Assembly (NCBI GenBank): GCA_038087875.1
Contig: CM075988.1
Span: 7,318,001 to 7,382,000 of the forward strand
Length of the DNA stretch: 64,000 bases
Reading direction: 5' to 3'
Source: Malacoraja senta
Taxonomy: Eukaryota
Part shown: positions 14,112 to 54,380 of the stretch, piece after piece
Position numbering within the stretch: the first letter of the stretch is position 1
Layout of the letters: every line of letters starts with the position of its first letter
The notes under the pieces: generated by a model
Databases searched by the model: none
What the model was told of the DNA's origin: nothing
The model's input: the letters and a program-made list of their open reading frames with translations, nothing else
Made by a program: the position numbers and the translations under genes

Positions 14112-14305
14112 AGTGCTCAGCGGGTCAGGCAGCATTTCTGGAGAAAAAGGATGGGTGACGTTTCGGGTCGGGATGAAGAAGGGTCTCAACCCAAAACATT
14201 ACCCATGCTTTTTCTCCTGAGATGCTGCCTGACCCGCTGAGTTACTTCAGCGCTTTGTGTCTTTCTGTGGTATAAACCAGCATCTGCGGTTCTTTGTCTC
14301 TACTC
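14112..14305. mobile_element. Palindromic pair of Penelope-like terminal repeats
   Basis: ctcagcgggtcaggcagcat...gggtgacgtttcgggtc followed by its inverted copy ...gatgctgcctgacccgctgag. Confidence 0.8.
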
Positions 14306-15223
14306 TTTGAATTGTTAATTGTTATGGGGTTTAATATAAATTTGTGGCTTAGTGAGCACTGTATATTTGACAGAAAAGTTCCTTTTCTAATTTATTTAAC
14401 ACATTGTCCGATATCTGTGGTCTAAATGTATCATGGTATGTGCCGGCTTTTGCAATTTGGTTGGTTCCTGTCATACTTTCCAGCCCCTCATCTTCCCCTT
14501 GCCAAATCTGTTAATTCACATTTTTTGGGTATTTATCCTGCTCCTTTTTGAATATTAGAAAATTACTGAACCTCCTCTACTACATTACCTTCTACCACCA
14601 AACCACACCCCACTCCCCTGTTCCTAGTCCACATCACTTACTGTGTAACATTAATCTATTCTCTGGTCACTTGCTTTGATCTTTTTCCATTTACCTCCAT
14701 TCAGTGTCTCCAGCTTTTTGATTGTCTTGATAAACTCTCTATATCCTTTATGATTTAAAATATCTCTATCAGGGTCTTCTCGGTTGTAAAGACATCAACC
14801 TGAGCAAAATACTCCTAGATATTTGCCTCCAATCTTTTCTATTGTATTGTTGTCATTTTACTCCATTCCTTTATCTCTGGAATCATTTTGACATAAACTG
14901 GGGTCAATATTTCACTTTAAATGTGGTTGAACCAGTTTTTCATGAAAGTTAATCATAATTTTCTTGTTTTTGACGTTAAATCTCTATTTATAAATCCCAG
15001 GCCCCTGAATGCCCTTTGAACCAGTTTCTCTGCCATTTTCATTCAACCATCTGCTTATGGCCCAAGATCTCTCCGCTCTTGTATGGCTTTTGGATTTGTG
15101 GTCTCGGATTTGCATTGCTTCGTCTTCTTTCCACCAAGTGTAACATCACATATCTTGGCATTCAATTATATCTGCCTCCTATCTGCCCATTCCATCAGCC
15201 TGCATACATCCCTCTTAAGTCTG

Positions 15224-15302
15224 AAACGTTACCTGTTTCCTTCGCTCCATAGATGCTGCTGCTGCTGCACCCGCTGAGTTTCTCCAGCATTTTTGTGTAC
15301 CT
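15224..15302 (+). mobile_element. 79-bp 5'-truncated Penelope-like terminal fragment with 19-bp target-site duplication
   Basis: TACATCCCTCTTAAGTCTG at 15205-15223 and 15303-15321; the insert matches 23820-23892 and the repeat at 37043-37116. Confidence 0.85.
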
Positions 15303-16047
15303 TACATCCCTCTTAAGTCTGTTATCTCCATCATAATTTACTATGGCTCCAAGTGTGCGCCCTCTGTAGCTTTGGAGAATGTGAGCTGGACATCCATGTC
15401 CAAGTCATTAACATATCTGAGGAAAAGCTGTGCTTCTATTTCCAGTCCCTGGGGGGCTCCACTGAATACACTGTCCAGACTGTAAAGAAACTTATGGATG
15501 ATGCTGTCATCTATTCCTCAGCTAAATCTCCATCCATGCTATTACTTTGTCAGAAACTCATTTTCTTGAAACTAATGATTTGCCACTGAATCTGTACCCC
15601 TTGTTCTGGATTTCCATGAATAATCTTTGCCGAAGTAAACTAATTTACCAATTAATTGTTGACTCGCATTATTTTGCTGATTTAACTACCGGTATATATG
15701 CTGAAAACATTTTTAACTTTAAGAACTTCAAATGTTTTTTGCCCAAACTTTTTCTTGCCCTTAATTTTTGTTTTCTTATTCAGTTGCTTCATGATTGTTT
15801 TAAGTTGATCTGTCCTTCATACCAGGCTATTCGATAGCTGTGGCATTCCTGGCTGGTTATTTATAGCCTCGGTGTCAGTTTGGACTGAGATTACATCTTT
15901 TGTATTAACGATGCCTTGTAAATATACATCGATTCCACAAGCATTTGAAGTAGAATATCTAGTGACAGATTGTCCCAATGTCTGTCATTCTTTGCTTATT
16001 TTGCAGGGGAAAAAAAAATCACACTATATAAATCACATAGAAAATCT

Positions 16048-20552: not shown

Positions 20553-21110
20553 TGTGTAGGAAAAAACTGCAGATGCTGGTTTAAATCGAAGGTAGACACA
20601 AAATGCTGGAGTAACTCAGCGGGACAGGCAGCATCTCTGGAGAGAAGGAATGGGTGACGTTTCGGGTCGAGACCCTTGTTCAGACTAACATCAGTTTTAT
20701 GTTATATGAGTAACCTCCTATTTTGCTTGGGCAGCTTACAACCCAGCAGTATGAATATTGACTTCTCCAACTTCAAGTGACCCTTGCATTCCCTCCCTTC
20801 CCGTTTTCCAGTTTTCCGACCAGTCTGACTGTCTCCATGATTACATTTTATCTGTTTGCTTTGTTGTCACCTTCTTCAAGCCAGCAATGATCTATTCTAC
20901 ATTTCCTTGATCTACATCCCATTTGATGTCTCGCTTTCACACCTTGCCCTTCCTTATCTCTGTCCCCCCGACTCTCAGTCTGAAGAAGGGTCTCGACCCG
21001 AAACATCACCCGTTCCTTCTATCCAGAGATGCTGCCTCGTGCTGCTGAGTTACTCCAGCATTTTGTGTCTATCTTTGGTGTAAACCAGCATCTGCAGTTC
21101 CTCCCTACAC
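20553..21110 (+). mobile_element. Penelope-like element 3' end preceded by an inverted terminal repeat
   Basis: 20553-20686 is the repeat on the minus strand; 20715-20780 matches the end of the GIY-YIG ORF (…LGSLQPSSMNIDFSNFK*); + strand repeat at 20975-21110. Confidence 0.8.
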
Positions 21111-21719
21111 TGGCATCTGTACCCTCTTTTGTTTTATTTCTCCGAGTTCAGACCTTCATCTTAAGAACTCAACCACATGATAACACCAATACAAAAATAG
21201 TGACAATCCTTCAAATACGTTTTCACCTTTCGCAGAAATAATTTAATAGCTTCTAGTGTGTTCAGGCGCTGGAGAAAAAAAACACACATCACCGACCTCA
21301 CCCAGAACTCTTGCTTACTTTGAGATCCCAAACAGACATTGTTGCTTAAAAAAAGTACAATCCAGGAACTGCAGATGCTGGTTTACACAAAAGGACTCAA
21401 AGTGCTGGAGTAATTGTTGTTACCTTCGATGAGCCTATCTTTTGCTTGCTTTTATGTGTAAATGCATATGGGATCTCCATTTGCTGGAATTAACCATGTT
21501 AATTTTTTAATGGAAATGGGCCACTTTCTTAAACTCTTGATCTGCGCACACTGCTAGCTTAGTGCATGTTCTCCTGCTACTCGGCTGCCCCAGGTTTTGT
21601 TGTGAATTTTAAACCAATGGCTTGTGCTTTGCATATGGTTGTGAAATGAGTGCTTTCCTTTTTGTTCTGTTGACCTTGTGGTATAAAGTGGCTCAAAATG
21701 GAATTTGCGCTGCACTAGC

Positions 21720-22030: not shown

Positions 22031-22730
22031 CGTCTATACTCACCTGTGGTGTCAATTTTCTATTTTGTATTCTGCATGCGTTGCAGAGAGTATTTTCCCC
22101 TTGGTGAGTACGAGTATTTGAGCAAAACACCAAATGCTGGAATAACTCAGCACGTCAGACAGCATCTGCGGAGGAAATGGATAGGCGAGGTTTAATGGCG
22201 GGGCCATTCTTCAGAATCTTCAGATGCTGCCTGACCCGCGGTGTTCCTCCAGCACTTTATATTTTGCTCAAGATTCCAGCATCTGCAGTTTTTTTGCAGT
22301 ATCTCCGTCAAGTAATACTATGTGACTGGTCAGAATTTGTTAAATTATGATGAGGGCGATTTTTGAATTTGCTTGATAATTGAGCATATGGGAACCACAG
22401 AAATGATCATCCCCATTACCGTGGTAGGCAACATAAAAAAAATTAGATATTTGAAAAAATTAATTTGTGGAGGAAATCTTTAGACAGAGGGTGCTAAATG
22501 TCACATGGTGTCTTGATGGAAAATTATTTTTATAATTTTCTTTTCATTCTGGTTTTGTATGCTTTCCTGGGCTTTAACCCATATTGATTGGAAGTTGTAA
22601 CATGTTGTATAATTTGTCTCTCCTGTTAACCTCTTTTATGGTAGTAGACTTGCACTTTTACGGTGAATTTTATATGGTAACGCCTCACAGATTAATCAGG
22701 CAAATCATGACATTGAATGAAGTTATTAGC

Positions 22731-23027: not shown

Positions 23028-23894
23028 GATTTCGTGGGGGGAAGAAAGGAAAAAAGGAAAAAGGCGGAGGAGGAGCCCGAGGGCTGGGGGAGGGGAGGAG
23101 ACAACCAGAGGGCTGATGAAGGGGAGGGGACAGCAAGGGCTAGCAGAATATGGAGAATTCAATGTTCAAGCCCCCAGGATGTAGACTGCCCAAGCGGAAT
23201 ATGAGGTGCATTTCCTCCAATTTACGCTGTTGCTCGCTGTGGCCATGGAGGAGACCCAGGACAGAGAGGTCAGCTACGGAATGGGAGGGGGAGTTGAAGT
23301 GCTGAGCCATCGGGAGCTCAGGTTGGTTATTGCGGACCGACCGGAGGTGCTCGGCGAAACGATCGCCAAGCCTCCGCTTGGTCTCACCGATGTAGATCAG
23401 CTGGCATCTAGCATCTGCTGGCATCTAGAGCAGCGGATGCAATAGATGAGGTTGGAGGAGATGCAGGTGAACCTCTGTCGCACCTGGAACGACTGCTTGG
23501 GTCCTTGAATGGAGTCGAGGGGGGAGGTGAAGGGACAAGTGATGCATCTCTTGCGGTTGCAAGGGAAAGTACCAGGGGAGGGGGTGGTATGGGAGGGAAG
23601 GGAAGAATTGACAAGGGAGTTACGGAGGGAGCGGTCTTTGCGGAAGGCAGACATGGGGGGAGATGGGAAGATGTGGCGAGTGGTGGGGTCACGTTGGAGG
23701 TGGCGAAACTGACGGAGGATCACTTGTTGTATGTGACGGCTGGTGGGGTGAAAGGTGAGGACTAGGGGGACTCTGCCCTTGTTGTGCCCCCTATCAGTCT
23801 GAAGAAGGGTTTCGGCCCGAAACGTTGCCTATTTCCTTCGCTCCATAGATGCTGCTGCACCCGCTGAGTTTCTCCAGCATTTTTGTGTACCTTC
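23028..23894 (-). mobile_element. Penelope-like retroelement fragment (linker + GIY-YIG endonuclease, disrupted) with its 3' terminal repeat in opposite orientation; 13-bp TSD
   Basis: ORFs 23397-23723 and 23140-23424 give 'GTFPCNRKRCITC...FTCISSNLIYCIRCSRC..IYIGETKRRLGDRFAEHLRSV...LHPGGLN'; GCATAGATGATGA at 23015-23027 and 23895-23907. Confidence 0.9.
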
Positions 23895-24539
23895 GCATAG
23901 ATGATGATCTGGCTTTAAGCTGCATTTTAAGAAGAGAGAGATTGGGTGCGTTAGGAGGTGAGATACGATTTAGGCCATCAACAGCTGAAGCTGTTACTGT
24001 TGCTATTTGATGTGAGGCGGGGAGTGGTCGGTGGTGTGGTTCTTTTTCATATGACTGAAAGAGGTTGCAGAGATGGGATTTATAGTAGGTAGATACATAC
24101 TACTGGAGTAACACAGCGGGACAGGCAGCATCTCTGGAGAGGGGAATGGGTATGGATCTTACAATGAAAAGGGATTTAGCTGTCTGCAAATTTGCAGGCT
24201 GTATATTCCAATTTTTATTATTTTCCAAATCCAGTAAGAAATATTTCATTTTTTGGCAAGAGCACATTGGGAAAAGTACTTTTTTTTTTTTTGATCTCTA
24301 GTTCTTCATAGTTATTTTTACATTTTATTTAGAAAAGCATCGTTCTGTTTCTCGAGCTCCAGCTGGAGCGAGAGCCTGATGGCGTTAGGAGAGGTCTGCG
24401 GGAATTTGAAATATGTGCAGAAGTTTCCAGCTTGACACTTTACTAAGAAATGGGGGAAGGATAGGGGCTCCCTGTGCCACGGGTGACATGAATTACAGAA
24501 AACCGGCTTTACGAAAATTCTCCCAAACATTTTGAAAGC

Positions 24540-25606: not shown

Positions 25607-26184
25607 GAAACATAGAAACATAGAAAATAGGTGCAGGAGGAGGCCCTTCGAGCCAGCACCGCCATTCATTGTGATCATAGCTGATCGTCCCCAATCAATA
25701 ACCCGTGCCTGCCTTCTCCCCATATCCCTTGATTCCACTAGCCCCCAGAGCTCTATCTAACTCTCTCTTAAATCCATCCAGTGATTTGGCCTCCACTGCC
25801 CTCTGTGGCAGGGAATTCCACAAATTCACAACTCTCTGGGTGAAAAAGTTGTTTCTCACCTCAGTCTTAAATGGCCTCCCCTTTATTCTAAAACTGTGAC
25901 CCTGGTTCTGGACTCGCCCAACATTGGGAACATTTTTCCTGCATCTAGCTTGTCCAGTCCTTTTATCATTTTATATGTTTCTATAAGATTCCCCCTCATC
26001 CTTCTAAACTCCAGTGAATACAAGCCTAGTCTTTTCAATCTCTCCTCATATGACAGTCCCGCCATCCCAGGGATCAATTTCGTGAACCTACGCTGCACTG
26101 CCTCAATCACAAGGATGTCCTTCCTTAAATTAGGAGACGAAAACTGTACACAATACTCCAGATGTGGTCTTACCAGAGCCCTAT
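25607..26184 (-). mobile_element. CR1 LINE 3' fragment
   Basis: 'YRALVRPHLEYCVQF.SPNLRKDILVIEAVQRRFTKLIPG...LYSLEFRRMRGNLIETYK'; (tttctatg)n tail. Confidence 0.95.
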
Positions 26185-26671
26185 AAACCGAGCCACCTCG
26201 GTTTAAGGGGTCAAACCGAGATGTCTCCAGTGTTCTATCTTGTCGACTAAGTTGAAATAACACAGTTGTCTGCTGACTGGACAGTAGAGCTCTCTCTACC
26301 CTTGCCCCATTGACTATGAACAGACTTGGAGCTCAATAAATTGTTCAAGATTAAAACTTCAACATCACTTCCAGTTCAGATGCAGAATAATTTGTCTGTT
26401 TGGTTTGCAGATATGAGAATGCTGTTTAAGAGGCTCTTAGAGAGGGACACGGATGTGCAGGGATTGGAGGAACATGGATTTACATACCGGCAGATGTGAT
26501 TAGTTGACCTTGGAGCATGTTTGGCACAGACATTGTGGGCAGAAGGGCTGTTCCTGTGCTGTACTGTTCTATAGGCGAGTCTATGTGGGCTGAACCACAT
26601 GAATTCAACCTTGAGTGAGGTTCATCAGTGTCCCTTTCCAGTTTTTACATTACTTCATATCTGTTGCCTAC

Positions 26672-27700: not shown

Positions 27701-27714
27701 AGGAGTGGGGGACA

Positions 27715-27940
27715 GAAGAAATGGGTGACGTTTCGGGTCGAGACCCTTTTCAGAAGAAGGGTCTCCACCCGAAAACATCACCCGTTCCTTCTCACCAGAG
27801 ATGCTGCCTGTCCCACTGAGTTGCTCCAGCATTTTGTGTCTATCTTCACATCAGTCTGAAGAAGGGTCTCCACCCGAAACGTCACCCATTCCTTCACTCC
27901 ATAGATGCTGCCTCACCCGCTGAGTTTCTCCTACCTTCAG
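27715..27940. mobile_element. Penelope-like terminal repeats: inverted piece plus two tandem + copies
   Basis: Minus copy 27715-27755, + copies ~27752-27846 and 27852-27935; intact hammerhead-like core at 27856-27883. Confidence 0.8.
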
Positions 27941-29230: not shown

Positions 29231-29504
29231 TTCGAGGTCTGGGCTGTCGACAGCCTTCGTAAAATAAGTTGAATTTCCCACATGGCAATAAAAGGATGGG
29301 CATTTTATTGATGGCTGTTTATTTCCAGTGGAGTCAGTACTTGAGTACCTTGAGGTGGCTGCAATATTTTGGACCATATTTTGGAAAATGACTTAAATAC
29401 AAATATTTTCTGTATCCTTGATTGAGCCTTGCCCTCCAGCAGTGTACTGAGGGAGTACTTCTTAATGGTATGCATTCTTGCTGAAGTCAGTGTATAATTC
29501 TGCA

Positions 29505-29730
29505 GAAGGAAACTAAGTGCTGAAGTAACTCAGCTGGCCAAAGGCAGCATCTCTGAAGAACATGGACAGGTGACGTTTCGGGTCAAGAGCCTTTAGTCTG
29601 AAGTAGGATCACAAACCGAAACGTAACCTATCCATGTTCTCCAGAGATGCTGCCCGCCCGCTGAGTTACTTTAGCACTTTGTGTCCCTTTCTGCATTAAC
29701 CAGCATCTACAGGTTTATTTGTCTCTGCAT
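29505..29730. mobile_element. Palindromic pair of Penelope-like terminal repeats
   Basis: aagtgctgaagtaactcagc...ggtgacgtttcgggtc / gtctgaagta...ccgaaacgtaacc...gctgagttactttagcactt. Confidence 0.8.
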
Positions 29731-30061: not shown

Positions 30062-30847
30062 CAGCTTTGTCCCAAGGAAAACCTTTATTAGAGGTACTGG
30101 GAAACATTCTGTTCTTGCGGGCTATCATCCACTGATAAGATAACACTCGATAGAGACACACAATGCTGGAGTAACTCAGCGGGACAGGCAGCATCTCTGG
30201 AGAGAAGGAATGGGTGATGTTTTGGGTCGAGTACCTTCTTCAGACTGAAAATAACACTGGTGTGTGTTTCAGTTCATACTTCTGACTGCGCCTCTGAAGT
30301 CTGTTGATATTCAGTGCACAGAGCTGGACAGTCTTGGTTCTGTATTGGTGCTTTTTTTTGGCAGGTCTCTTGCATTCCATTAGATAAATATAGAATCTGA
30401 TTCCAACGAGAATGTTTTGGGATATGGGTGAGTGACTTGTATTGTCTACGCTCTGATTTTTCTTTTTGACTTACTGAAATTACCACAGATGAAGACATTG
30501 AAAATGACCAAGGTAATTATTAAATAGCAGTGTCAATTTGGGGGAAGAAAATCAAATGTTTTTGGTTTAAAAGTGGAAGAAGTGAATTATTTATATCATG
30601 TGAGGAACAAAAGCCATTATTTGAACTTCAATTCTGCATCAACACTAACCCCCAAAACAGAGTTCAATAAATCCAGTAATTTTGCTCTCAATCTTTGTCT
30701 TTCTTGTCTGGTTCATGTACCGCCATTGATGTTTCCTGCGTGTTCCACATTACTCGATGTGGCCATATATCATTTATTTCCCTCTCCTCCCAAAGCAATA
30801 TTATTTAGTTGGAGAATCTCATGATCTTATTTAGTTGGAGAATCTCA

Positions 30848-31087
30848 GGAGTGGTGAATCTCTGGAACTCTCTGCCACAGAGGGTAGTCGAGGCCAGTTC
30901 ATTGGCTATATTTAAGAGGGAGCTAGATGTGGCCCTTGTGGCTAAAGGGATCAGAGGGTATGGAGAGAAGGCAGGTACGGGATACTGAGTTGGATGATCA
31001 GCCATGATCATATTGAATGGCGGTGCAGGCTCGAAGGGCCGAATGGCCTACTCCTGCACCTAATTTCTATGTTTCTTTGTTTCTATG
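30848..31087 (+). mobile_element. Young CR1 LINE 3' fragment
   Basis: Nearly identical to 47640-47860; (tttctatg)n tail. Confidence 0.95.
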
Positions 31088-32280: not shown

Positions 32281-32470
32281 TGTAGAGACAAAATGCTGGA
32301 GTAACTCAGCGGGTCAGGCAGCATCTCTGGAGAAAAGGAACGGGAGACCCTTCTTCGACCCGAAACGTTACCCTTTTCCCTTTCTCCAGAGATGCTGCCT
32401 GACCTGCTGAGTTACTCTAGCATTTTGTGTCTATCTTTGGAGTAAACCAGAATCTGCTGTTCCATCGTAA
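32281..32470. mobile_element. Palindromic pair of Penelope-like terminal repeats
   Basis: acaaaatgctggagtaactcagcgggtcaggcagcatctctggagaaa / tttctccagagatgctgcctgacctgctgagttactctagcattttgt. Confidence 0.85.
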
Positions 32471-32898
32471 ACAAGATGTAAATGTTGTGAGACATCAATT
32501 GATCCATTCCTGCAGATAATCTGGTCGAGCAACACAAGAATGAGCAACACAAGAATCTGGCCTTGATTTGGTAAATTTCAAGTGACAACTGTAATGATTG
32601 AAAGATACCAACTGGACAGTGAAGTCAATTCAGCAAACTTTTTTCTTTCCTAATTTTGTTTTGTATAAAATCTCGGAGGATTAGTTTAATATATCATCAC
32701 TGTTTACTATCTTAAATTAGTTGATAAAGGAAAGCTAGTGTAGAATCATTAAAGGCAAATCATGTTTGATTTTTTTGACGACGTCAGGAATGTAGTAGAT
32801 GTCATCCATTTAGAATGCTTTGGATAAAAAATACTGCAGCAGGTTGGTTAGCAAGTTGGTTGCTTTCTTTGTGATAGTACATGCTGGTATGGTATACG

Positions 32899-33990: not shown

Positions 33991-34654
33991 GAGATCACTT
34001 ATGACTTGAATCTCCTTGCATGAAACAATCGATCAGGAATTTTGGAAGTGATGTGGAGGGTGTTTGGGAGAGAGAGTGATTTGCAGTGCAGGAAGAAAGG
34101 GCAGGAAATGTGACTGGAATTGCTCTCCCTGGTGCTGGCATGGTCTCGATTTGGCCGAGAGTCTGCTTCCTATATGACAATAAAAGATCCTCGTCTCTAG
34201 ATTCAACGCTCGACACATCAACTCCTTCCAAACCCTTCTCCATTCACGTGCTGCACTGTGTGACTTGCACATCTGTTCCCAAGGTGCTTCATTCATTATC
34301 TTGCTGTTTTTAATTTGTGTATCTATAAACCTTAACCCGGCCAACAACTCTCGACTTACTTGCCTAATAAATTACTGTTCTTCCGGTAGTTCAATTGTGA
34401 ATTCATCTCTCGTCACCCATTGCTCTCTAGCATTAAGCCAGACCTTAAGCCTTTCCCTTTCAGCCTTGCTCACTTATTTAAGTCCCTACTTAACAAAATC
34501 AAGCCTCTTTTCAACTTTGTGCATAGTTTTGTGGAACTTGACTCCGCAAAGTGCTTTTATACTTTATAGTTCGGGCTGTTACGTAAATATTGTTCAGTCT
34601 AATTTTCACCCATAAATCATCTGTCAGTATTCTAATGTTCATTGATTTCTGGGA

Positions 34655-34885
34655 TAGACACAAAAAGCTGGAGTAAATCAGCGGGACAGGCAGCATCTCT
34701 GGAGAGAAGGAATGGGTGACGTTTCGGGTCGAGACCCTTCTTCAGACCCTTCTCCAGTCTGAAGAAGGGACTCGACCCGAAACGTCACCCATTCCTTCTC
34801 TCCAGAGATGCTGCCTGTCCCGCTGAGTTACTCCAGCATTTTGTGTCTACGGTTTAAACCAGCATCTGCATTTCCTTCCAACACA
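34655..34885. mobile_element. Near-perfect palindrome of two Penelope-like terminal repeats (93-bp arms, 9-nt spacer)
   Basis: Arms 34655-34747 and 34757-34849 differ at 3 positions by eye; each carries CTGAAGA...GAAACGTC. Confidence 0.9.
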
Positions 34886-35236
34886 TAATGATTTCTGAGA
34901 GTTGATCTTTGTATCAATCTCATGACATAAAGTGAGACTCAATCTTCTCAGGGCTGTATTAGTCGAACACCCAAAGTGTTGTTGCTAAGGAACCATTATT
35001 CACTTTTACCTAGACAGGGCAGTCTAGACAGTGATACCCCAATGTTTTCTCTTTCTAGCTGCATTGAAGCCATGTTATCTAGTGGCATGGTACTCCTAGT
35101 ACTGAGTTAAAAGTATTGGTCAAAGCCCAGCCAATTTCTCCTATGTTTCGGGCAATTAAATTGCTTGGCTGTTGAGTAAAGGATAATCTTGCTGGGAGTG
35201 GTGCACTGTGTTGGTTCAGCTGGCAGCACACAGACT

Positions 35237-36009: not shown

Positions 36010-36094
36010 TGTCTATCTGCTCTAAACATGGGTTCCTTGCACGAATGGAGACTGGCCAATTCACCAAGGAACCCATGTTTAGAGCAGATAGACA
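36010..36094. repeat. Perfect 30-bp inverted repeat with 25-nt spacer
   Basis: TGTCTATCTGCTCTAAACATGGGTTCCTTG (36010-36039) / CAAGGAACCCATGTTTAGAGCAGATAGACA (36065-36094). Confidence 0.95.
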
Positions 36095-36589
36095 ATTCAA
36101 GGTCTGTCGGTTGAAGCAGGTCTGAAGAGGTCGTGTCCCTTGGATGTGCGCCCCCACCTGCCCAAACCTCTTGCAATTCTATGCATAGGAACCAAAGCCC
36201 AATGTGCAAGGACAATTAAACTACCCCACAATCATTGTAAGTGGGTGTTGACAATCAAGTGAGTTGCCATTTCCAACCATCTGTTAATAATTATCTTTGC
36301 AATTACAAGCTATGGAAGGAGACCTCCTGAGAAAGTGGCACTGGATTTGAGCAACAGATGTTTATACAACAAGGCCATCAGGTCTCCATGTGATGGCGTC
36401 AATTATGGCCGACCCGAGTGACCTGCTCAATCAATCCTCCCTTGGTTTTATTTATGGATTTCCCTGATTCAAAATGGCAGCTTGATGTGATGACTAAATT
36501 CAGACATTGACACTGCTCCTTTCTCCTTAAGGCAGCTGCGGATAGATGTGCGCTGTGAATGCAGTCTGAAAGTGTTTATCCAAGTGTTT

Positions 36590-37116
36590 ATTCCAGGTGC
36601 GGCAGAGGTTCACCTGCACCTCCTCCAACCTCATCTGTTGCATCCGCTGCTCTAGATGTCAGCTGCTCTACATCGGTGAGACCAAGCGTAGGCTTGGCGA
36701 TCGCTTCGCCCAACACCTCCGCTCGGTTCGCAATAACCAACCTGATCTCCCGATGGCTCAGCACTTCAACTCCCCCTCCCATTCCGAATCCGACCTTTCT
36801 GTCCTAGACCTGCTCCATGGCCAGAGTGAGGACCACCATAAATTGGAGGAGCAGCACCTCATATTTCGCTTGGGCAGTTTGCACCCCAGCGGTATGAACA
36901 TTGACTTCTCTAATTTCAGGTAGTCCCTACTTTCTCCTCACCCTCTCAGCTCTTCCTCAGCCCACTGGCTCCACCTCTTCCTTTCTTCTTCCCGCCCCCC
37001 TCCCACCCACCCACACATTAGTCTGAAGAAGGGTTTCGACCCAAAACGTTACCTATTTCCTTCGCTCCATAGATGCTGCTTTACCCGCTGAGTTTCTCCA
37101 GCGCTTTTGTCTACCT
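36590..37116 (+). mobile_element. Penelope-like retroelement 3' fragment: GIY-YIG endonuclease end, 3' UTR and terminal repeat
   Basis: ORF 36597-36923 'FTCTSSNLICCIRCSRCQLLYIGETKRRLGDRFAQHLRSV...HFN...EQHLIFRLGSLHPSGMN'; followed by a pyrimidine tract and the gtctgaagaaggg... repeat. Confidence 0.92.
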
Positions 37117-37997: not shown

Positions 37998-38327
37998 AGG
38001 TTGGCTTTAACTGATGTTCCACAATGGATGGACAACCACTGATATTGACAAATAAGATGATTCGCATTTTGGACATTATGGTGTCCAACTTCTCCAACTT
38101 CTAGATGAGGAATCTGCAGTGAAATCTCTGATTCTGCAACAGTGCACACAACAGTATAAATGGTAAGAATTTTATTGTGAATGGTTATTAAGGATTGTTT
38201 TTTTTTTTGATACATTGCTTCGTCTTCATATAGATGACTGCAATTCCAATTCTGTGGTTTGGAGGAACTCCTGAAGTGCTTTTATTTATCTGGGTGCTTT
38301 TTATTGGTAAGAAAGAACTGCAGATGC

Positions 38328-38510
38328 TGGTTTAAATTGAAGGTAGACAAATGCTGGACGACCAGCGGGTGAGGCAACATCTCTGGAGAGAAGGAATGGG
38401 CGACGTTTCGGGTCTGAAGAAGGGTCTCGACCCGAAACGTCACCCATTCCTTCTCTCCAGTGATGCTGCCTCTCCCGCTGAGTTACTCCAACATTTTGTG
38501 TCTACCTTTG
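38328..38510. mobile_element. Palindromic pair of Penelope-like terminal repeats; + copy has a complete minimal hammerhead fold
   Basis: GGGT-CTGAAGA-A-GGGT(CTCG)ACCC-GAAA-CG-TC-ACCC at 38410-38445. Confidence 0.85.
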
Positions 38511-40545: not shown

Positions 40546-40723
40546 GGGTTTTGTGCTGAACTTTAAAAAGTGCTATGTGATTGCAAACAAAAATCCATCT
40601 GTGAGATGTTAGTGATTTCTTTTCTGCAGGTATGTGTGAGAGTGGATGGGCGGAGTATTGACATTTTCTTCTAATCTTGCTAGGTCAAATACGTCCCCTG
40701 TAGCTTTGAGAATACTTTCTGAC

Positions 40724-41195
40724 CCTTGCTATTGAGGGAGTGCAGCGTAGGTTCACCAGGTTAGTTCCCGGGATGGCAGGACTGACATATGATGAAAGAA
40801 TGGGTCGACTGTGCTTGTATTCACTGGAAAGTAGAAGGATAAGAGGGGAACTTATAGAAACATATAACATTCTTAAAGGATTGGACAGGCCTGATGCAGG
40901 AAAAATGTTCCCCAGGGTTCACAAATTAAGAATAAGGGGTAGGCCATTTAGGCCTGAGATGAGGAAAAACGTTTTCATCCAGAGAGTTATGAATCTGTGG
41001 AATTCTCTGCCACAGAAGGCAGTAGAGGCCAATTCACTGGATGTTTTCAAGAGAGAGTTAGATTTGGCTCTTCAGGCTAACAGAATCAAGGGATATGGGG
41101 AAAAAGCAGGATTTTGGATGATCAGCCATGATCATATTGAATGGTGATGCTGGCTCGAAGGGCCGAATGGCCTACTCCACCTATTTTCTATGTTT
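40724..41195 (+). mobile_element. CR1 LINE 3' fragment
   Basis: ORF 40740-41147 'QRRFTRLVPGMAGL.YDERM.RL.LYSLE.RR.RG.LIETY...NLWNSLP'. Confidence 0.95.
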
Positions 41196-42190: not shown

Positions 42191-43143
42191 AATAGGTGCA
42201 GGAGTAGGCCATTCGGCCCTTCGAACCAGCACCGCCATTCAATGTGATCATGCTGATCATCCCCAATCAGTACCCCGTTCCTGCATTCTCCCCATATCCC
42301 CTGACTCCGCTATCTTTAAGAGCCCTATCTAGCTCTCTCTTGAAAGTATCCAGAGAACTGGCCTCCACTGCCCTCTGAGGCAGAGAATTCCACAGACTCA
42401 CAACTCTCTTTGAGAAAAAGTGTTTCCTCGTCTCCTTTCGAAATGGCTTACCCTTTGTTCTTAAACTGTGGCGCCTGGTTCTGGACTCCCCCAACATCGG
42501 GAACATGTTTCCTGCCTCTAGCGTGTCCAAACCCTTAACAATCTTATATGTTTCAATAAGATATCCTCTCATCCTTCTAAACTCCAGAGTGTACAAGCCC
42601 AACCACTCCATTCTCTCAGCATATGATAGTCCCGCCATCCAGGGAATTAACCTTGTAAACCTACGTTGCACTCCCTCAATAGCAAGAATGTCCTTCCTCA
42701 AATTAGGGGACCAAAACTGCACACAATACTCCAGCTGTGATCTCACTAGGGCCCTGTACAGCTGCAGAAGGACCTCTTTGCTCCTATACTCAACTCCTCT
42801 TGTTATAACGGCCAACATGCCATTCGCTTTCTTCACTGCCTGCTGTACCTGCATGCTTACTTTCAGTGACTGATGTACAAGGACACCCACGTCTCGTTGT
42901 ACTTCCCCTTTTCCTAACTTGACACCATTCAGATAATAATCTTCCTTCCTGTTTTTGATACCAAAGTGGATAACCTCACATTTATCCACATTAAACTTAA
43001 TCTGCCATGCATCTGCCCACTCCCCCAACCTGTCCAAGTCACCCTGCATTCTCATAGTATCCTCCTCACAGTTCACACTGCCACCCAGCTTTGTGTCTTC
43101 AAATTTGCTAATGTTACTTGAATCCCTTCATCCAAATCATTGA
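42191..43143 (-). mobile_element. CR1 LINE 3' fragment (RT C-terminal half), next to a SINE head fragment (42129-42190, +)
   Basis: ORF 42267-43076 'QGDLDRLGEWADAWQIKFNVDKCEVIHFG...LYRALVR..LEYCVQFWSP...LWNSLP'. Confidence 0.95.
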
Positions 43144-45048
43144 CAGAAGTATCAAATGCTTGAGGTTAAACACCATTTAAAATTTGGAAAAGAACAAGAA
43201 CCTCCTGAGCATGTCATTGGTAGCAGAAATTAGCTTCCAATTGACCTCGGGATGTCTCAATTAAACTGTAATTGATCAGGGTGTTAGTTCTAGGTCTTGT
43301 AGAAAACAGTAAGGTTTCACGTAACCGCATCTTTAGCAGCGGGATAATGGAATGCGCACTTAATGATATAAAGTACCTATCTTTATGTTCCTTCCAAGGC
43401 CAAGGAGATCTAGTATTACATTTACAAAGAACCCTTCTATTTCTGGGTCTTGAAGGAAATTGGTCCTGTACACCACTCCTCATGTTTCCATGCACTGTGC
43501 GAGAAGAGAAATTTCCTATTAGGATGTTTTAAAATTGATTATCCAAATCAATTCTCAATGTTATTTAATATACAGATGTTCCCCGATTTATGATGCTTCG
43601 ACTTACGATATTTCGACTTTGCGATAAAGAATAACAATCATAATTGAGCAGACAGGGAGATTGCTAATGAAAAGTGGACAAGATTCTCGCTGTTCAGTAG
43701 ATTTGGTAATTGAAAAACAACCTCTGTTTTATTTCAGGAGTCGTTCAGAAATCATCATCAGCATCTTTAAATGCTTTGCTTTCAAATGCTTTTAGTAAAA
43801 ATGCCAAGATGAAAAACATTTTTCTGAAACAAGGAAAAATAAAATTAGTTCTTTTAAACGTTCTACTCTCCAATCCCATGAGCCTAAACAGTTTAATGCT
43901 GATTGATATTGTTTATTTAATAATTGTATTTTGTGATCTCGAAGGGATATTGTTCCATTTTTTGCAGTGTAATAATATGGTCCTACAGCATGGAAACAGG
44001 CCCTTTAACCCAACTTGCCCACACCGATCAACATGTCCCATCTTCATTAGTCCCACCTGCCTGCATTTATTGCAAAAAAAGACAGAGTGCTGGAGTAATT
44101 GAGTGGGCCCAACAGCATTTCTGGAGAACACTGATCGGTGGAGCAACTGCAAAGATTGCTGGCTTGTTTTCCACTCCGTATTGCTCTTTCCTCAACTGGA
44201 CTGATAATTCATCAAACTCTCCTCCAGTGCATTCGCTGCTGCATTTATGAAGCGTTTCTGGGAGGAGAAAAGACACATTAGCTGTGAGCCATTTTCTGAA
44301 GGAGATGGATGTTATTGGTGTTAAAGATTAGATGTGGAGGTCACCTAATGTTTCGTCGTCTCTGATTTGTGTTTTCATGAATGAATTGCAAGAAACCTAA
44401 ATATTGATCTCGTAAATAATAAAGCACAGCAATTTACCATCATGAATAATGTTTTTTTTAAATTAAAAATGAGAACTTGAAGATTAAGTGTCTTGGAGCT
44501 GGTGGGTCATGTCTAAAGTGTCCTTAGTGGCTCCAAGATGTATAATAGCTGTTTTCAGCCATAATGTAATCTATTGAATTTGTTGATTATAGATCAACTG
44601 AAGTCATATGGGTAAAGATTAGATTCAAAAGAGATGTTGTCGCTGTGCTGGGTGTGTTTTACTGCACAAACAAAGTCACCAGGTGATAAGGGGGATTGAT
44701 AAGTAGGCAGATGTTCGACAGATGTGGTAAAGATAGGATTATTTTAGGGGATTTCAATTCCCAAATATTAATTGGGATTGTCTCCGTGTAGATGGTTTCA
44801 GGGGGGGCGGGGGTATTTGGGAGTTCTGAGTTTTGTCCAGACAAGCTTTTTAACACTATATTCAGTGCCCTCCATAATGTTTGGGACAAAAACCCTTTAT
44901 TTAATTATTTGCCTCTGTACTCCACAATTTGAGATTTGTAATAGAAAAAAAATCACATGTGTTTAAAGTGCACATTGTCAGATATTAATAAAGGCCATTT
45001 TTATACATTTTGGTTTCACCATGTAGAAATTACAGCAGTGTTTATACA

Positions 45049-47770
45049 TATGATATAGTTGGGATCACGGAGACATGGCTCCAGGGTGACCAAGGCTGGG
45101 AGCTGAACATCCAGGGATATTCAATATTCAGGAGGGATAGAGAGAAAGGAAAAGGAGGTGGGGTAGCGTTGCTGGTTAGAGAGGAGATTAACGTAGTGGA
45201 AAGGAAGGACATTAGCTTGGAGGATGTGGAATCGGTATGGGTAGAGCTGCGAAACACTAAGGGGCAGAAAACGCTGGTGGGTGTTGTGTACAGGCCACCT
45301 AACAGTAGTAGTGAAGTTGGGGATGGCATCAAACAGGAAATTAGAAACGCGTGCAACAAAGGCAAAACAGTTATAATGGGTGACTTCAATCTACATATAG
45401 ATTGGGTGAATCAAATTGGCAGGGGTGCTGAGGAAGAGGATTTCTTGGAATGTATGCGGGATAGTTATCTAAACCAACATGTTAGAGGAACCAACGAGAG
45501 AGCAGGCTATTCTAGACTGGGTATTGAGTAATGAGGAAGGGTTAGTTAGCAGTCTTGTTGTGCGTGCCCCCTTGGGCAAGAGTGACCATAATATGGTTGA
45601 GTTCTTCATTAGGATGGAGAGTGACATTGTTAATTCAGAAACAATGGTTCTGAACTTAAAGAAAGGTAACTTTGAGGGTATGAGACGTGAATTGGCCAAG
45701 ATTGACTGGCAATTAGTTCTAAAAGGGTTGACGGTGGATATGCAATGGAAGGCATTTAAAGACTGCATGGTTGAACAACAAAAATTGTTCATCCCAGTTT
45801 GGCAAAAGAATAAATCAGGGAAGGTAGTGCATCCATGGATAACAAGGGAAATCAGGGATAGTATCAAAGCAAAAGATGATGCGTACAAATTAGCCAGAAA
45901 AAGCAGCATACCAGAGGACTGGGAGAAATTCAGAGACCAGCAGAGGAGGACAAAGGGCTTAATTAGGAAAGGGAAAATAGATTATGAAAGAAAACTGGCA
46001 GGGAACATAAAAACTGACTGCAAAAGTTTTTATAGATATGTGAAGAGAAAGAGATTAGTTAAAACAAATGTAGGTCCCTTGCAGTCAGAAACAGGTGAAT
46101 TGATCATGGGGAACAAGGATATGGCGGACCAATTGAATAACTACTTTGGTTCCGTCTTCACTAAGGAAGACATAAATAATCTGCCGGAAATAGCAGGGGA
46201 CCGTGGGTCAAAGGAGATGGAGGAACTGAGTGAAATCCAGGTTAGTCGGGAACTGGTGTTGGGTAAATTGAATGGATTAAAGGCCGATAAATCACCAGGG
46301 CCAGATAGGCTGCATTCCAGAGTACTTAAGGAAGTAGCTCCAGAAATAGTGGATGCATTAGTGATAATTTTTCAAAACTCTTTAGATTCTGGAGTAGTTC
46401 CTGAGGATTGGAGGGTAGCAAACGTAACCCCACTTTTTAAGAAGGGAGGGAGAGAGAAAACGGGGAATTACAGACCAGTTAGTCTAACATCGGTAATGGG
46501 GAAACTGCTAGAGTCAGTTATTAAAGATGGGATAGCAGCACATTTGGAAAGTGGTGAAATCATTGGACAAAGTCAGCATGGATTTACGAAAGGTAAATCA
46601 TGTCTGACGAATCTTATAGAATTTTTCGAGGATGTAACTAGTAGAGTGGATAGGGGAGAACCAGTGGATGTGTTGTATCTGGACTTTCAGAAGGCTTTCG
46701 ACAAGGTCCCACATAAGAGATTAGTATACAAACTTAAAGCACATGGTATTGGGGGTTCAGTATTGATGTGGATAGAGAACTGGCTGGCAAACAGGAAGCA
46801 AAGAGTAGGAGTAAACGGGTCCTTTTCACAATGGCAGGCAGTGACCAGTGGGGTACCGCAAGGCTCAGTGCTGGGACCCCAGCTATTTACAATTTATATT
46901 AATGAACTGGATGAGGGAATTGAAGGCAACATCTCCAAGTTTGCGGATGACACTAAGCTGGGGGGCAGTGTTAGCTGTGAGGAGGATGCTAGGAGACTGC
47001 AAGGTGACTTGGATAGGCTGGGTGAGTGGGCAAATGTTTGGCAGATGCAGTATAATGTGGATAAATGTGAGGTTATCCACTTTGGTGGCAAAAACAGGAA
47101 AGCAGACTATTATCTAAATGGTGGCCGATTAGGAAAAGGGGAGATGCAGCGAGACCTGGGTGTCATGGTACACCAGTCATTGAAAGTAGGCATGCAGGTG
47201 CAGCAGGCAGTGAAGAAAGCAAATGGTATGTTAGCTTTCATAGCAAAAGGATTTGAGTATAGGAGCAGGGAGGTTCTACTGCAGTTGTACAGGGTCTTGG
47301 TGAGACCACACCTGGAGTATTGCGTACAGTTTTGGTCTCCAAAACTGAGGAAGGACATTATTGCCAGAAAGGGAGTGCAGAGAAGGTTCACCAGACTGAT
47401 TCCTGGGATGTCAGGACTTTCATATGAAGAAACACTGGATAGACTCGGCTTATACTCGCTAGAATTTAGGAGATTGAGAGGGAATCTTATAGAAACTTAC
47501 AAAATTCTTATGGGGTTGGACAGGCTAGATGCAGGAAGATTGTTCCCGATGTTGGGGAAGTCCAGGACAAGGGGTCACAGCTTAAGGATAAGATGGAAAT
47601 CCTTTAAGACCGAGATGAAAAAAACATTTCTCACACAGAGAGTGGTGAATCTCTGGAACTCTCTGCCACAGAGGGTAGTTGAGGCCAGTTCATTGGCTAT
47701 ATTTAAGAGGGAGTTAGATGTGGCTAAAGGGATCAGGGGGTATGGAGAGAAGGCAGGTACGGGATACTGA
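45049..47770 (+). pseudogene. CR1 ORF2 (endonuclease-reverse transcriptase), N-terminally truncated, one frameshift near 45482
   Basis: 'DIVGITETW...GVVYRPP...MGDFN' in ORF 45010-45531 continues as 'EEPTR..AILDWVL...SDHN...KSPGPD...YRPVSL...DFQKAFDKV...GVPQGSVLGP..F...FADD' in ORF 45479-47770. Confidence 0.95.
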
Positions 47771-47933: not shown

Positions 47934-48975
47934 TTAGTATTTTGTTGCATATCCTTTGCATGCAATGACAGCTTGAAGTCTGCGATTCATAGACATCACC
48001 AGTTGCTGGTTGTCTTCTCAGGTGATGCTCTGCCAGGCCTGTATTGTAGCCACCTTTAGCTTATGCTTGGTTTGGGGGCTAGTCCCCTTCAGTTTTCTCT
48101 TCAGCATATAAAAGGCATGCTCAATTGGGTTGAGATTGGGTGATTGACTTGGCCACTCAAGAATTGACCATTTTTTAGCTTTGAAAAACTCCTTTGTTGC
48201 TTTAGCAGTATGTTTGGGATCATTGTCTTGCTGTAGAATGAACCGATGAGTCAATGAGTTTTGAGGTTATTGTTTGAACTTGAACAGATAGGATGTGTCT
48301 ATACACTTCAGAATTCATTATGCTACTACCATCAGCAGTTGTATCATCAATGAAAATAAGTGAGCCAGTACCTTCAGCAGCCATACATGCCCAGGCCATA
48401 ACACCCCCACCATCGTGTTTCACAGATGTGGTGGTATGCTTTGGATCATGGGCAGTTCCTTCTCTCCCCCATACTTTGCTCTTGCCATCACTCTGATATA
48501 AGTTAATCTTCGTCTCTTTTGTCCACAAGACCTTTTTCCAGAACGGTGGTTCCTCTTTTAAATACTTCTTGGCAAACTGTAACCTGGCCATTCTATTTTT
48601 GCGGCTAACCAGTGGTTTGCATCTTGCAGTGTAGCCTCTGTATTTCTGTTCATGAAGTCTTTTACGGACAGTGGTCATTGACAAATCCACACCCGACTCA
48701 TGTAAAGTGTTTCTGATCTGTCGGACAGGTGTTTGGGATTTTTTTCCCTTTATTATAGAGATAATTCTTCTGTCATCAGCTGTGAAGGTCTTCCTTGGCC
48801 TGCCAGTTCCTTTACGATTAGTAAGCTCACCAGTGCTCTCTTTCTTCTTAATGATGTTCCAAACAGTTGATTTTGGTAATCCTAAGTTTTGGCTGATGTC
48901 TCTAACAGTCTTATTCTTGTTTCTCCATCTCATAATGGCTTCTTTGCAATTCATTGGCACAACTTTGGTCTTCAT
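47934..48975 (-). pseudogene. Tc1-family DD34E transposase, inactivated
   Basis: HTH plus 'GRPRK'; 'VLWTKETK' (first catalytic D replaced by K); 'QQDNDPKH'; 'WPSQSPNLNPIE'; frameshift near 48250; in-frame TGA at 48018-48020, after which the frame continues 'EDNQQLVMSMNRRLQAVIACKGYATKY*' to TAA at 47934. Confidence 0.95.
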
Positions 48976-49349
48976 GTTGATAAACAGCAATAAAAGTTTC
49001 CAAAGGTGATGGAAAGACTAGGTGCCGAGAGCTCTCTTTTACCTGGCTTTTAAGGAGGCAATTATTACACACCTGAGCAATTACAAACACCTGTGAAGCC
49101 ATATGTCCCAAACATTATGGTGCCCTGAAATGGGGGGGACTATATATAAACACTGTTGTAATTTTTACATGGTGAAACCAAAATGTATAAAAATGGCCTT
49201 TATTAAAACCTGACAATGTGTACTTTAACCACATGTGATTTTTTTTCTATTACAAATCTCAGATTGTGGAGTACAAACAAATAAATGATGGGTCTTTGTC
49301 CCAAACATTATGGAGGGCACTGTATACATTGATTAATGAGAGAAGGAGC

Positions 49350-50682: not shown

Positions 50683-50983
50683 TGGGCGGCACGGTGGCGC
50701 AGCGGTAGAGTTGCTTCCTTACAGCGCTTGCAATGCCGGAGACCCGGGTTCTATCCTGACTACGGGTGCTGTCTGTACGGAGTTTGTACGTTCCCCCAGT
50801 GACCTTTCCCCGAGACCTTCGGTTTCCTCCCACACTCCAAAGACGTACATGTTTGTAGGTTAATTGGCTTGGTATATAAATATAAAATTGTCCCCAGTGT
50901 GTGTACGATTGCTGGTCGGCGCTGACTTGGTGGGCCAAAGGGCCTGTTTCTGCGCCATATCTCTAAAAAATAAAAATAAAAAC
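50683..50983 (+). mobile_element. tRNA-derived SINE (HE1/V-SINE-like), full length
   Basis: gggcggcacggtggcgcagcggtagag head, core, 3' end. Confidence 0.9.
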
Positions 50984-51009
50984 TACATGGGTGGAGTTTG
51001 GAGTTTGGT

Positions 51010-51290
51010 GACAGCATGAAAACAGCCCCTTTGACCCACCAAGTCTATGCCAACCTCTATCACCCATTCACACTAGCACTGTTAATCTCACTTTCTGATC
51101 GACTCACTGGACACTAAGGGCATTTTACAGAGACCAATTAACCTACAAACCTGCACGTCTTTGCAATGTGGGAGGAAACCAGAGCACCCAGAGGAAACTC
51201 ATGTGGTCGCAGGGAGAATGTGCAAACTCCACACAGACAACACCCGAGGTCAAGATCGAACCCGTGTCTCTGGCCCTGTGAGGCAGCTGA
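51010..51290 (-). mobile_element. HE1/V-SINE-like SINE, inverted next to the previous copy
   Basis: Reverse-complement core and B box (gatcgaaccc). Confidence 0.85.
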
Positions 51291-52924: not shown

Positions 52925-53472
52925 AGTCATACAGCATGGAAACAGGCCCTTCGGCCGAACTTGCCAACACCAACCAACATACCCTATTTACACTCGTCCC
53001 ACCTGCCTGCGTTTGGCCCATATCCCTCCAAACCTATTCTATCCATGTACCTGTCTGAATGCTTCTTAACTGTTGCAATAGTACGTGCCTCAACTACCAC
53101 CTCCAGCTGCTCATTCCATACACCCGCCACCCTTTGTGTAAATAATAAAGTTACCCCTCTGGTTCCTATTATATCCAGAGACCCGGGTTTGATCCTGACT
53201 ACAGGTGCTGCCTGTACGGAGTTTGTACATTCTCCCTGTGACCACGTTGCTTTCCGGTTTCTTCCCACACTCCAAGGACGTGCAGGTTTGTGGGTAAATT
53301 GGGTTCGGTAAAAAAATTGGAAATTGTCCCTAGTGTGTAGGATAGTGCTAGTTGTTCTTCAGACGAAGAAGGTTCCTAACCCGAAAGGTCACCTATCCCT
53401 GTTCTCCTGGCCTGCTGAGCTACTCCAGCACTCTGTGTCTTTTGTAAACCAGCATCTGCAGTTCCTGGTTTC
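52925..53472. mobile_element. Composite: CR1 3' fragment (-, 52925-53170), SINE fragment (+, 53176-53350), Penelope-like repeat (+, 53355-53472)
   Basis: Each segment matches other copies of the same family in the window. Confidence 0.75.
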
Positions 53473-53898
53473 TGCTTTGTGTTAGCTCACTTAGTCTGCC
53501 TTTATCCCCTTCCACATGGCTCATATGCTCTTCCCCGCTCACGTTCCCACCCAGCTTCGCATCTACCAGTAAAATAATATTGTTACTGAGTGCCTTTTCA
53601 TCTGTGTCATTTGATAGTGATTAACTGATTAGCCCAATGCCAATATCTAGGGTACTCCACCAATAAAAGTTTTCCAAATAGAAAACTGCTGCTACTCTCT
53701 ATATTTATGCTTTCATCAACCCTTTGTTCAAACACATAAGCTGTTGGACAACAACATCTGGTGCTTTGTGTTTTGTTTAAAAAAAACTAAATAATCTATA
53801 TTCATTGATCTTCTGCTTAAGGATACTGCTAGTTACATCTTTGAAAAGTATAGATCGTCAGACGTGATCATCTTTCACTGATCCACATTGATCCAAGG

Positions 53899-54380
53899 GT
53901 GTAGGAAGGAACAGCAGATGCTGGTTTACACAGAAGATAGACACAAAATGCAGGAGTAACTCAGCGGGACAGGCGGCATCTGTGGATAGAAGGAATGGGT
54001 GACGTTTCGGGTCGAGACTTCTTCAGATCCAAAGGTGCTGTCACCAGAATCTTAAGAAAGGATTCCAGCAATTTTCTGATAATTAATTTTCGGCCAATTG
54101 GTTTGTGGTTCCCTATCTTCTTTTCACTGTTCTTTTTCTTGAATAGTGGTGTTTCACTGGCCAGTTTCAAACAAATTGAGACTGTAGAAACAAGGAACTG
54201 CAAGATGCTGGTTTGCAAAGAAGGACATAAAGTGCTAGAATAACAGTGGATCAGGCAGCATCTCCGGAGAACATGGATAGGTGACGTTTTGATCATCAAC
54301 GGGTTTTAGGACCTAAGACGTCACCTATCCACATTCTCCAGAGATGCTGCTTGAGTTACTCTAGCACTAGGTGTCCAATT
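53899..54380. mobile_element. Penelope-like terminal repeats: minus copy 53899-54027 and palindromic pair 54184-54380
   Basis: Match to the repeat consensus; ggagaacatggataggtgacgt / acgtcacctatccacattctcc inverted arms. Confidence 0.8.

Follow-up and report, generated by a model that had tools for sequence, protein, structure and literature searches.

Is a short palindrome that carries a hammerhead ribozyme motif in each arm a mobile element in its own right, or is it the trace of a single insertion of something larger? This question is raised by a locus at 34643-34897 in the 64-kb stretch of skate DNA analysed here (the window), in which two copies of a repeat unit of ~131 nt stand head to head. 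The first-pass annotation had offered both answers, a self-propagating, retrozyme-like family and a dominant abortive insertion product. We assign a probability of about 70% to the reading that the unit is the terminal cis-element of a Neptune-type Penelope-like element, and that each palindrome represents one insertion, with the inversion made during integration. The object itself is a transposon stump of a described class.

The focal palindrome, its repeat unit and the hammerhead

The focal palindrome lies between two copies of a 9-bp target-site duplication (TGATTTCTG), at 34643-34651 and 34889-34897 on the plus strand, whose score is reached by 1% of 398 random boundary pairs. Its left arm is inverted (34652-34747, minus strand), runs from unit position 2 to about 96 and stops at a short 3' end without the tail. 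The 7-nt spacer that follows (34748-34754, plus strand) duplicates the end of this arm (AGACCCTTCTTC / AGACCCTTCTCC) and may have arisen by slippage at the joint. The right arm is direct: its body (34755-34849, plus strand; unit 0-94) continues into a tail of about 35-39 nt (34850-34888, plus strand). Neither the duplication bracketing the whole palindrome nor the tail on one arm only had been seen by the first-pass annotation, which had correctly described the arms themselves as 93 bp with three mismatches from 34655 onwards; we measured 93 nt at 34655-34747 and 34757-34849, 9 nt apart and 97% complementary, with mismatches at 34666, 34677 and 34734.

Numbering of the unit starts at the A of AGTCTG. 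A profile built from 17 window copies found 47 matches (4,315 nt, E<=0.01) in the window and none in the reversed window, in keeping with the more than 20 copies of a ~130-bp repeat claimed earlier. Identity of the copies to the majority sequence ranges from about 0.6 to 0.96, and the unit is devoid of a long open frame. It consists of the minimal hammerhead, a conserved body to about 95-100 and an optional tail to about 131-135, and its outer ends are bimodal across copies, at about 92-101 or at about 129-135. Relative to shuffles, monomer folding gave z scores of -0.6 to +0.3 for five full units and of -1.9 for a 56-nt piece, and monomers are thus not more stable than shuffled sequence. Inverted pairs of a different abundant short repeat, unrelated to the hammerhead unit, were also observed (50800-51201, 59314-59942 and 62936-63332).

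Each focal arm carries a minimal type I hammerhead. The left-arm motif (34718-34745, minus strand; descriptor match at 34745) has an intact core and stem II; in the right-arm motif (34759-34786, plus strand; descriptor scan) the core is intact and one stem II pair is lost (3/4 pairs, A at 34770), and by analogy with published hammerheads (PMC4209133) cleavage is predicted after 34786. The boxes, stem II and ACGU stem III were as claimed, with four descriptor matches in the window against a mean of 0.017 in 60 shuffles; CUGANGA, GAAA and UH are all present, together with the extra base before stem II. An Rfam search, suggested earlier as a check, was negative in all four scans: no match reached the gathering score in 64 kb, and no hammerhead family appeared at E<=10 in 11 kb, 191 nt or 81 nt, which may be because the motif has no stem III loop.

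The same core recurs in 18 of 80 metagenome loci of ORF relatives (22 descriptor matches, a few of which are probably due to chance), mostly about 100 nt past the ORF end or inverted near truncated ORFs, and in three cases at the ORF start. Covariation of stem II and the first two helix I pairs scored 0.475, versus 0.201 when shuffled (0/500) and at most 0.119 when slid, in 25 hand-picked sequences (13 from the window and 12 loci, other animals included) whose kinship can inflate the score; 89% of the cells in this set are paired, the core is almost invariant, and the third helix I pair is unpaired in 12 of the 25. Together with the descriptor matches, the shared core and the covariation identify the motif as minimal type I. 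Judged by sequence, it is a real Penelope hammerhead, for which cleavage in the window copies is only predicted. Helix I comprises 2 bp, the third pair being unpaired in 11 of 11 readable window copies, and an intact core with at least 3/4 stem II pairs is retained by only 8 of the 21 copies that span the core. The active dimer fold, in which the two stems II form together with the ACGU duplex, reaches -12.5 kcal/mol, versus -19.7 kcal/mol for the best alternative. Cleavage by minimal hammerheads in the literature is weak, takes place in dimers or depends on the element protein (PMC4209133; PMC11167929). In the stump copies the motif would be a passenger, since their 5' ends are nearly always upstream of the cut site.

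The whole palindrome folds at -190 kcal/mol, a trivial consequence of its symmetric arms. The first-pass annotation had proposed that this hairpin masks its own ribozyme, and the prediction stands insofar as stem II has a probability of about 0 in the palindrome on both strands; the focal arm alone, however, likewise folds without stem II. Long double-stranded RNA from palindrome transcripts, which the first-pass annotation suggested could feed ADAR or Dicer, is plausible in principle, as the folding model would allow.

Two further observations concern the relatives. Long frames of about 900-1,130 codons, counted from the first Met, occur at L017:310-, L020:260- and L012:17-; their ORF start coincides with the hammerhead or contains it, and in L020 the first ATG lies inside the CUGAUGA box. 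Hammerhead variants in which CCGA replaces CUGA and stem II covaries occur at L001:2388-2425 and L080:1462-1499.

The parent element

Three ORF-end remnants were found by tblastn in the 64-kb window, which yielded neither the reverse transcriptase (RT) part of the element nor a full-length parent. The first (20715-21110, plus strand) is 5'-truncated and comprises the last ORF codons (20715-20777), the 3' untranslated region and a tailed unit downstream, at 20977. The second, likewise 5'-truncated (36583-37116, plus strand), comprises the GIY-YIG end, the untranslated region and a unit without tail, which begins at 37020, 100 bp past the ORF end of the 36582-36920 fragment, and has an 8-bp duplication. 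The third (23122-23899, minus strand), again 5'-truncated, contains a C-x4-C-x2-C linker and a frameshifted GIY-YIG domain, with an inverted unit (23794-23899, plus strand) at its 5' end. The earlier claim that the repeat follows both GIY-YIG fragments therefore holds for 36582-36920 on the plus strand and fails for 23122-23819 on the minus strand, where the unit is inverted at the truncated 5' end, which is the textbook arrangement.

Among 57 candidates, the GIY-YIG fragment (about 36570-36920) has 23 homologues, several of them with RT; the best are skate proteins (73-80%), followed by shark RT+GIY-YIG proteins (60-61%). The Pfam GIY-YIG match (E=0.005) lies under the curated cut-off. In the alignment, the domain is C-terminal, with two cysteines inside the motif, and the linker CNRKRCITC (C-x4-C-x2-C) stands upstream of it in 23400-23828 on the minus strand. 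A CX2-5CxxC linker separates Neptune and Nematis from Penelope and Poseidon (PMC8557442). The sequence features make a Neptune-type parent probable; Nematis, which shares the linker, would be a less likely assignment. Penelope origin as such, proposed from the outset, was borne out by the homologues with RT, the linker, the linkage of the repeat to the ORF end, and the combination of inverted repeat, tail and duplication.

The copies at 20977 and 37020 run into the untranslated region and the ORF, and the copy at 6060 probably extends into the untranslated region. When six masked upstream regions were compared, homology was confined to the side of the ORF end and one 21-nt match. Separately, predicted skate and shark proteins named as other genes (P0001, P0002, P0013 and P0020) contain the endonuclease region of the element; such misnamed proteins are probably gene-model artefacts.

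The surroundings of the repeats contain several other features. A CpG-rich region at 10150-10800 (promoter-like at about 10150-10600) has CCAAT, GC and CRE-like boxes, and, on the plus strand, a possible first exon that would end near 10516 and an acceptor near 10769; as to the host gene, 14 candidate exons gave no Pfam match and two gave no PDB match. A long LINE remnant, putatively CR1-like, occupies 45000-47770; its 765-codon frame matches RVT_1 (E=2e-33), an endonuclease-like piece stands upstream of that frame, and shorter fragments related to the remnant lie at 25695-26332, 30805-31047, 40710-41147 and 42267-43127. A Tc1/mariner-type transposase remnant is found at 48018-49017 on the minus strand (HTH_Tnp_Tc3_2, E=1e-16).

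Junctions, duplications and outer ends

Ten loci had been described as two copies back to back, and nine of them are indeed head-to-head. The tenth is a tailed solo copy (20553-20686, minus strand) without a palindrome arm, which has a perfect 14-bp duplication of its own and is a separate insertion, 290 bp from the neighbouring copy. We searched 25 insertion boundaries, set manually with slack, against 398 random pairs, and at six of the nine head-to-head loci a single 7-14-bp target-site duplication brackets the whole palindrome, each score being reached by 0.5-3.5% of the random pairs. At the focal locus (34643-34897), the inner ends lie at unit 2/0 and the duplication is 9/9, with the tail on the right arm. 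The tail is also on the right arm at 14102-14303 (inner ends 15/5, duplication 12/14, internal deletion in the left arm), at 29502-29725 (older subfamily, inner ends 10/1, duplication 10/11) and at 32285-32473 (inner ends 6/17, 2-nt overlap, duplication 7/7). It is on the left arm at 38309-38508 (inner ends 19/2, 3-nt overlap, duplication 13/14) and at 54186-54376 (older subfamily, inner ends about 25/19, 20-nt spacer, duplication 11/12).

The duplication search was negative at the other three loci (22121, 27710 and 60318). These are an old pair at 22118-22300 (inner ends 3/about 49), a pair at 27710-27931 with a 45-nt left arm and a third copy in tandem (27853-27931, intact hammerhead), and a pair at 60318-60558 with an 80-nt spacer, which may be two insertions. 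As side observations, a tailed copy at 53355-53476 follows a 10-nt stretch of its own start in inverted orientation, amounting to a palindrome with a minimal second arm, and an 80-nt solo fragment at 15205-15321 has a perfect 19-bp duplication, the longest found.

All nine junctions are distinct and none is shared. Two of the six junctions bracketed by a duplication have an overlap (2 and 3 nt), and the rest have spacers of 0, 1, 7 and 20 nt; the junctions at 53355, 23790 and 22121 were read by eye from the alignment. One outer end is short and the other long, with the tail on a single arm, in six of the six bracketed loci, a pairing with a chance of 0.014 if the ends were independent at the 9/16 long rate of the other copies, the short and long classes having been assigned by hand. 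Subfamily letters are common to both arms (9, 8, 3, 1, 1 and 1 in the six loci; the nine non-consensus letters are those of the 29502 arms), and the palindromes are spread over about three subfamilies of different age.

It is hardly conceivable, given these data, that the palindromes are two independent adjacent insertions or later inverted duplications in the genome. Independent insertion is true of 20553 and possibly of 60315, and a fold-back duplication of host DNA does start at the end of the 35922 copy (a perfect 30-bp inverted repeat at 36010-36094, from the short end of that copy into host DNA); single duplications around both arms in six loci, shared subfamily letters and the fixed pattern of short and long ends all speak against this origin for the remainder.

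The palindrome as a mobile unit, in a retrozyme-like or MITE-like non-autonomous family, fares little better and seems very improbable to us. Similar size (about 190-240 bp), abundance and the duplication around the whole palindrome are what such a family would display, but the nine loci have no common junction and fall into three subfamilies, and read-through copying of a palindrome would leave one truncated, variable outer end. Moreover, tandem arrays of hammerhead monomers, the trait that defines animal retrozymes in the available text of a recent preprint (bioRxiv 10.64898/2026.07.22.740005), are absent from the window. Applied to these nine loci, the proposed check on whether the palindromes share junctions thus came out against copying as a unit, and a self-propagating family is disfavoured by nine differing junctions, about three subfamilies and outer ends that coincide with the two natural 3' ends of the element. 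The same evidence, namely distinct junctions, several subfamilies and natural outer ends, supports the alternative of a dominant abortive insertion product, and the palindromes very probably form anew at each insertion, in several subfamilies.

Three further candidates were rejected. Against a MITE stand the variable centre, the variable retro-type duplications and the ORF-linked copies; for microRNA precursors, all matches were far below gathering scores; and an assembly artefact is excluded since the arms differ, duplications flank them and similar forms occur in other contigs.

Public data extend this picture beyond the window. Contigs of four public sequencing runs were matched to 20700-21125, which contains one ORF end and the unit, giving 218,320, 213,909, 236,969 and 18,235 matching contigs per run; run X18 is probably DNA. 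The positions listed for loose ends precede 20975 (unit -1) or follow 21100-21110; a further group, at 21010-21044, coincides with an aberrant part of the reference copy. Among the 15 of 883 joints listed, some of them without counts, there are head-to-tail joints (21102-21110 back to 20975-20981), two skips and tail-to-tail joints, the latter being the best-supported strand switches in this set (21074-6 with 21110; 97, 108 and 117 contigs in X1-X3). The 15 include no dominant head-to-head junction, which is weak evidence because short-read contigs break in hairpins. One head-to-head joint, a pair of rows joining 20978-9 with 21042-4, recurs with 5-23 contigs per row in X1-X3, as a palindrome family would have it; it falls, however, at the aberrant spot of the reference copy and may be a clipping effect. 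In the tail-to-tail joints, the short end of one copy is set against the long end of an inverted copy, which could result from an element inserting at the short end of its own repeat, or from tandem palindromes; none was found within the 64-kb window.

The short head-to-head form centred at the hammerhead is also present in two of the 80 metagenome loci of ORF relatives (L046:1-219 and L033:1-117), with two different junctions, and is therefore not peculiar to skates. Exact DNA patterns of the repeat matched no locus in metagenome and viral contigs.

Possible priming on both target strands and comparison with known systems

In the head-to-head geometry, both 3' ends of the element face host DNA, and we slightly favour the view that the two target strands are both used as primers. 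The GIY-YIG domain would cut the two strands with a 7-14-nt stagger, and each target 3' end would prime reverse transcription on the sense RNA, with the short internal start site used by one of them and the long site by the other. Both cDNAs would halt on reaching the template's 5' end or slightly earlier, just upstream of the hammerhead, and would then be joined through an overlap of 0-3 nt or a short spacer. Solo copies would be events that kept only one cDNA, and the ORF-bearing remnants events begun at the downstream repeat. Where the cDNAs stop, the transcript itself may begin: TCAGTCT, at the 5' boundary, matches an initiator consensus, and the relatives L012, L017 and L020 have a hammerhead also at the ORF start, although an initiator directly before the hammerhead is not evident in the loci of the relatives. 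The Penelope element of D. virilis has an internal promoter (PMC2377424).

Biochemical precedent comes from the Poseidon protein of the anole, which in vitro cleaves both target strands and extends them, initiates at two internal positions delimiting the tail, and is a predicted dimer; hammerhead cleavage is dispensable in that system and uncut RNA is used (PMC11167929). In the window, all 16 of the 5' ends that belong to short insertions with verified duplication (from 12 arms and 4 solos) fall between unit -1 and unit 25, which places them upstream of the cut predicted at unit 31/32. With 5' ends nearly always upstream of the cut site, the template would have been uncut, and the data suggest that this is true of most integrated templates. 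Ribozyme-cut-like 5' ends are seen in only one copy of >80% identity (24151), which starts at unit 32, and in three older matches at 31-33, a number too small to build on. The former (24085-24151, minus strand) begins exactly one base past the predicted hammerhead cut and is the single clear case.

Several observations go against priming of both strands. Three of the nine head-to-head loci are without a detected duplication, and the left arm at 27710 ends at unit 48, which is neither natural end. The nearest neighbour of an arm is not in every case its partner (rank 1-6 of 21-30 in six loci), overlap is found at only two of six junctions, and the tail-to-tail strand switches, best supported among the joints listed, are not predicted by this route. 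The sample is 64 kb in size, and the in vitro data come from another clade (Poseidon).

The published reading of head-to-head inverted pLTRs with palindromic junctions is self-priming (PMC3846280): the second arm would arise by fold-back on an antisense template (Arkhipova et al., 2013), with the outer ends set by endonuclease resolution, to which the tail has been attributed (PMC8557442). Fold-back fits the short overlaps and the slippage duplication at the junctions, and the tail-to-tail joints in the public runs indicate that routes other than priming of both strands exist. Nevertheless, we consider this origin unlikely for the skate stumps. It requires a hypothetical antisense RNA, and on its own leaves unexplained that the two outer ends coincide with the natural ends of the sense strand in six of six loci, ends that correspond in the anole element to reverse-transcription start sites (PMC11167929).

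A different question is which RNA serves as the template. A short, SINE-like monomer RNA transcribed from solo copies and mobilised in trans is conceivable, albeit somewhat doubtful; it bears on the template only and is compatible with the route that we prefer. The clustered 5' ends and the initiator-like boundary would suit such a template, as would the internal promoter mentioned above, and none of the seven copies with the T63 letter (20686, 24151, 27751, 30246, 34747, 34756 and 54027) has ORF or untranslated sequence upstream. Seven copies are too few, however, ORF-bearing remnants with closely related units are present within the same 64 kb, and a short product is expected from full-length RNA too, since L012, L017 and L020 have the hammerhead at the ORF start. 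Solo copies, if they were themselves transcribed from a start just upstream of the hammerhead, would amount to a SINE-like hammerhead family; judged by the >200,000 matching contigs in three of the four runs, it would rank among the commonest skate repeats.

Our most specific proposal, that the stumps record double target-primed reverse transcription by a protein dimer on an RNA that begins two or three bases upstream of the hammerhead, is a tentative one. If true, head-to-head pLTRs, a puzzle of long standing, would be explained without an antisense template. The accessible text of the cited papers leaves the mechanism of the inverted pLTR and the one-sided tail unsettled. Given that very many short events can be read for duplication, both outer ends and junction together, the skate genome provides a test set, and priming of both strands is made testable by a pattern in which a short end is paired with a long one, junctions differ from event to event and 5' ends lie upstream of the cut. 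Annotation is affected as well: the palindromes can be mistaken for MITEs or microRNA precursors (the Rfam scan contained many sub-threshold microRNA matches), and element sequence occurs within predicted proteins of skates that bear the names of other genes.

The literature already describes inverted pLTRs and their palindromic junctions, as well as duplications, tails on one side and hammerhead pairs on opposite strands. Our search of openly accessible article text retrieved no paper that deals with this repeat of skates or puts forward double priming as the source of the inverted repeat; figures or supplements of the cited papers may already show short palindromic copies. EN+ Penelope-like insertions display the same head-to-head repeat with a palindromic junction, the same tail of 30-40 nt on one side, duplications of about 8-10 bp and 5' truncation (Arkhipova et al., 2013, PMC3846280; Craig et al., 2021, PMC8557442), and the one-sided tail is also described in PMC11167929. 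The inverted pLTRs in the accessible text adjoin ORF-bearing copies, whereas those studied here are mostly ORF-less stumps, 190-240 bp long, whose two arms both end close to the hammerhead. With the Neptune clade, the parent shares the C-terminal GIY-YIG cysteine pair, the C-x4-C-x2-C linker and 61% identity to shark RT+GIY-YIG proteins.

The motif agrees with the minimal type I hammerheads that Cervera and de la Pena described (2014, PMC4209133) in the extra base after A9, the G10.1-C11.1 pair, the palindromic 15.2-16.2 without loop 3 and the prevalence of dispersed single motifs, and opposite-strand pairs 100-700 bp apart were already reported there. It differs in having a 4-bp stem II, A at N7 and a helix I of 2 bp rather than the usual 4-5 bp, 2 bp being also the length in D. 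virilis (PMC4209133). Poseidon PAc of Anolis (Frangieh et al., 2024, PMC11167929) likewise has internal start sites about 100 nt downstream of its hammerhead, a tail bounded by two 3' ends, and AT-rich targets; in contrast to the skate unit, which is without a long open frame, it belongs to another clade, and the main text of that paper does not apply the both-strand result to inverted repeats.

Animal non-LTR retrozymes, reported in one cartilaginous fish, are likewise ORF-less, pLTR-derived and equipped with a type I hammerhead; they form head-to-tail arrays with a hammerhead per unit, whereas the skate copies are dispersed solos and head-to-head pairs with duplications (bioRxiv 10.64898/2026.07.22.740005). 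In the sole direct tandem of the window (27751/27853), the core of the first unit is broken. In twin priming of L1, both target strands prime cDNA, and an inversion with microhomology results inside one duplication. Twin priming, however, inverts non-overlapping parts of the RNA, whereas the skate stumps would copy the same stretch twice, from fixed start sites.
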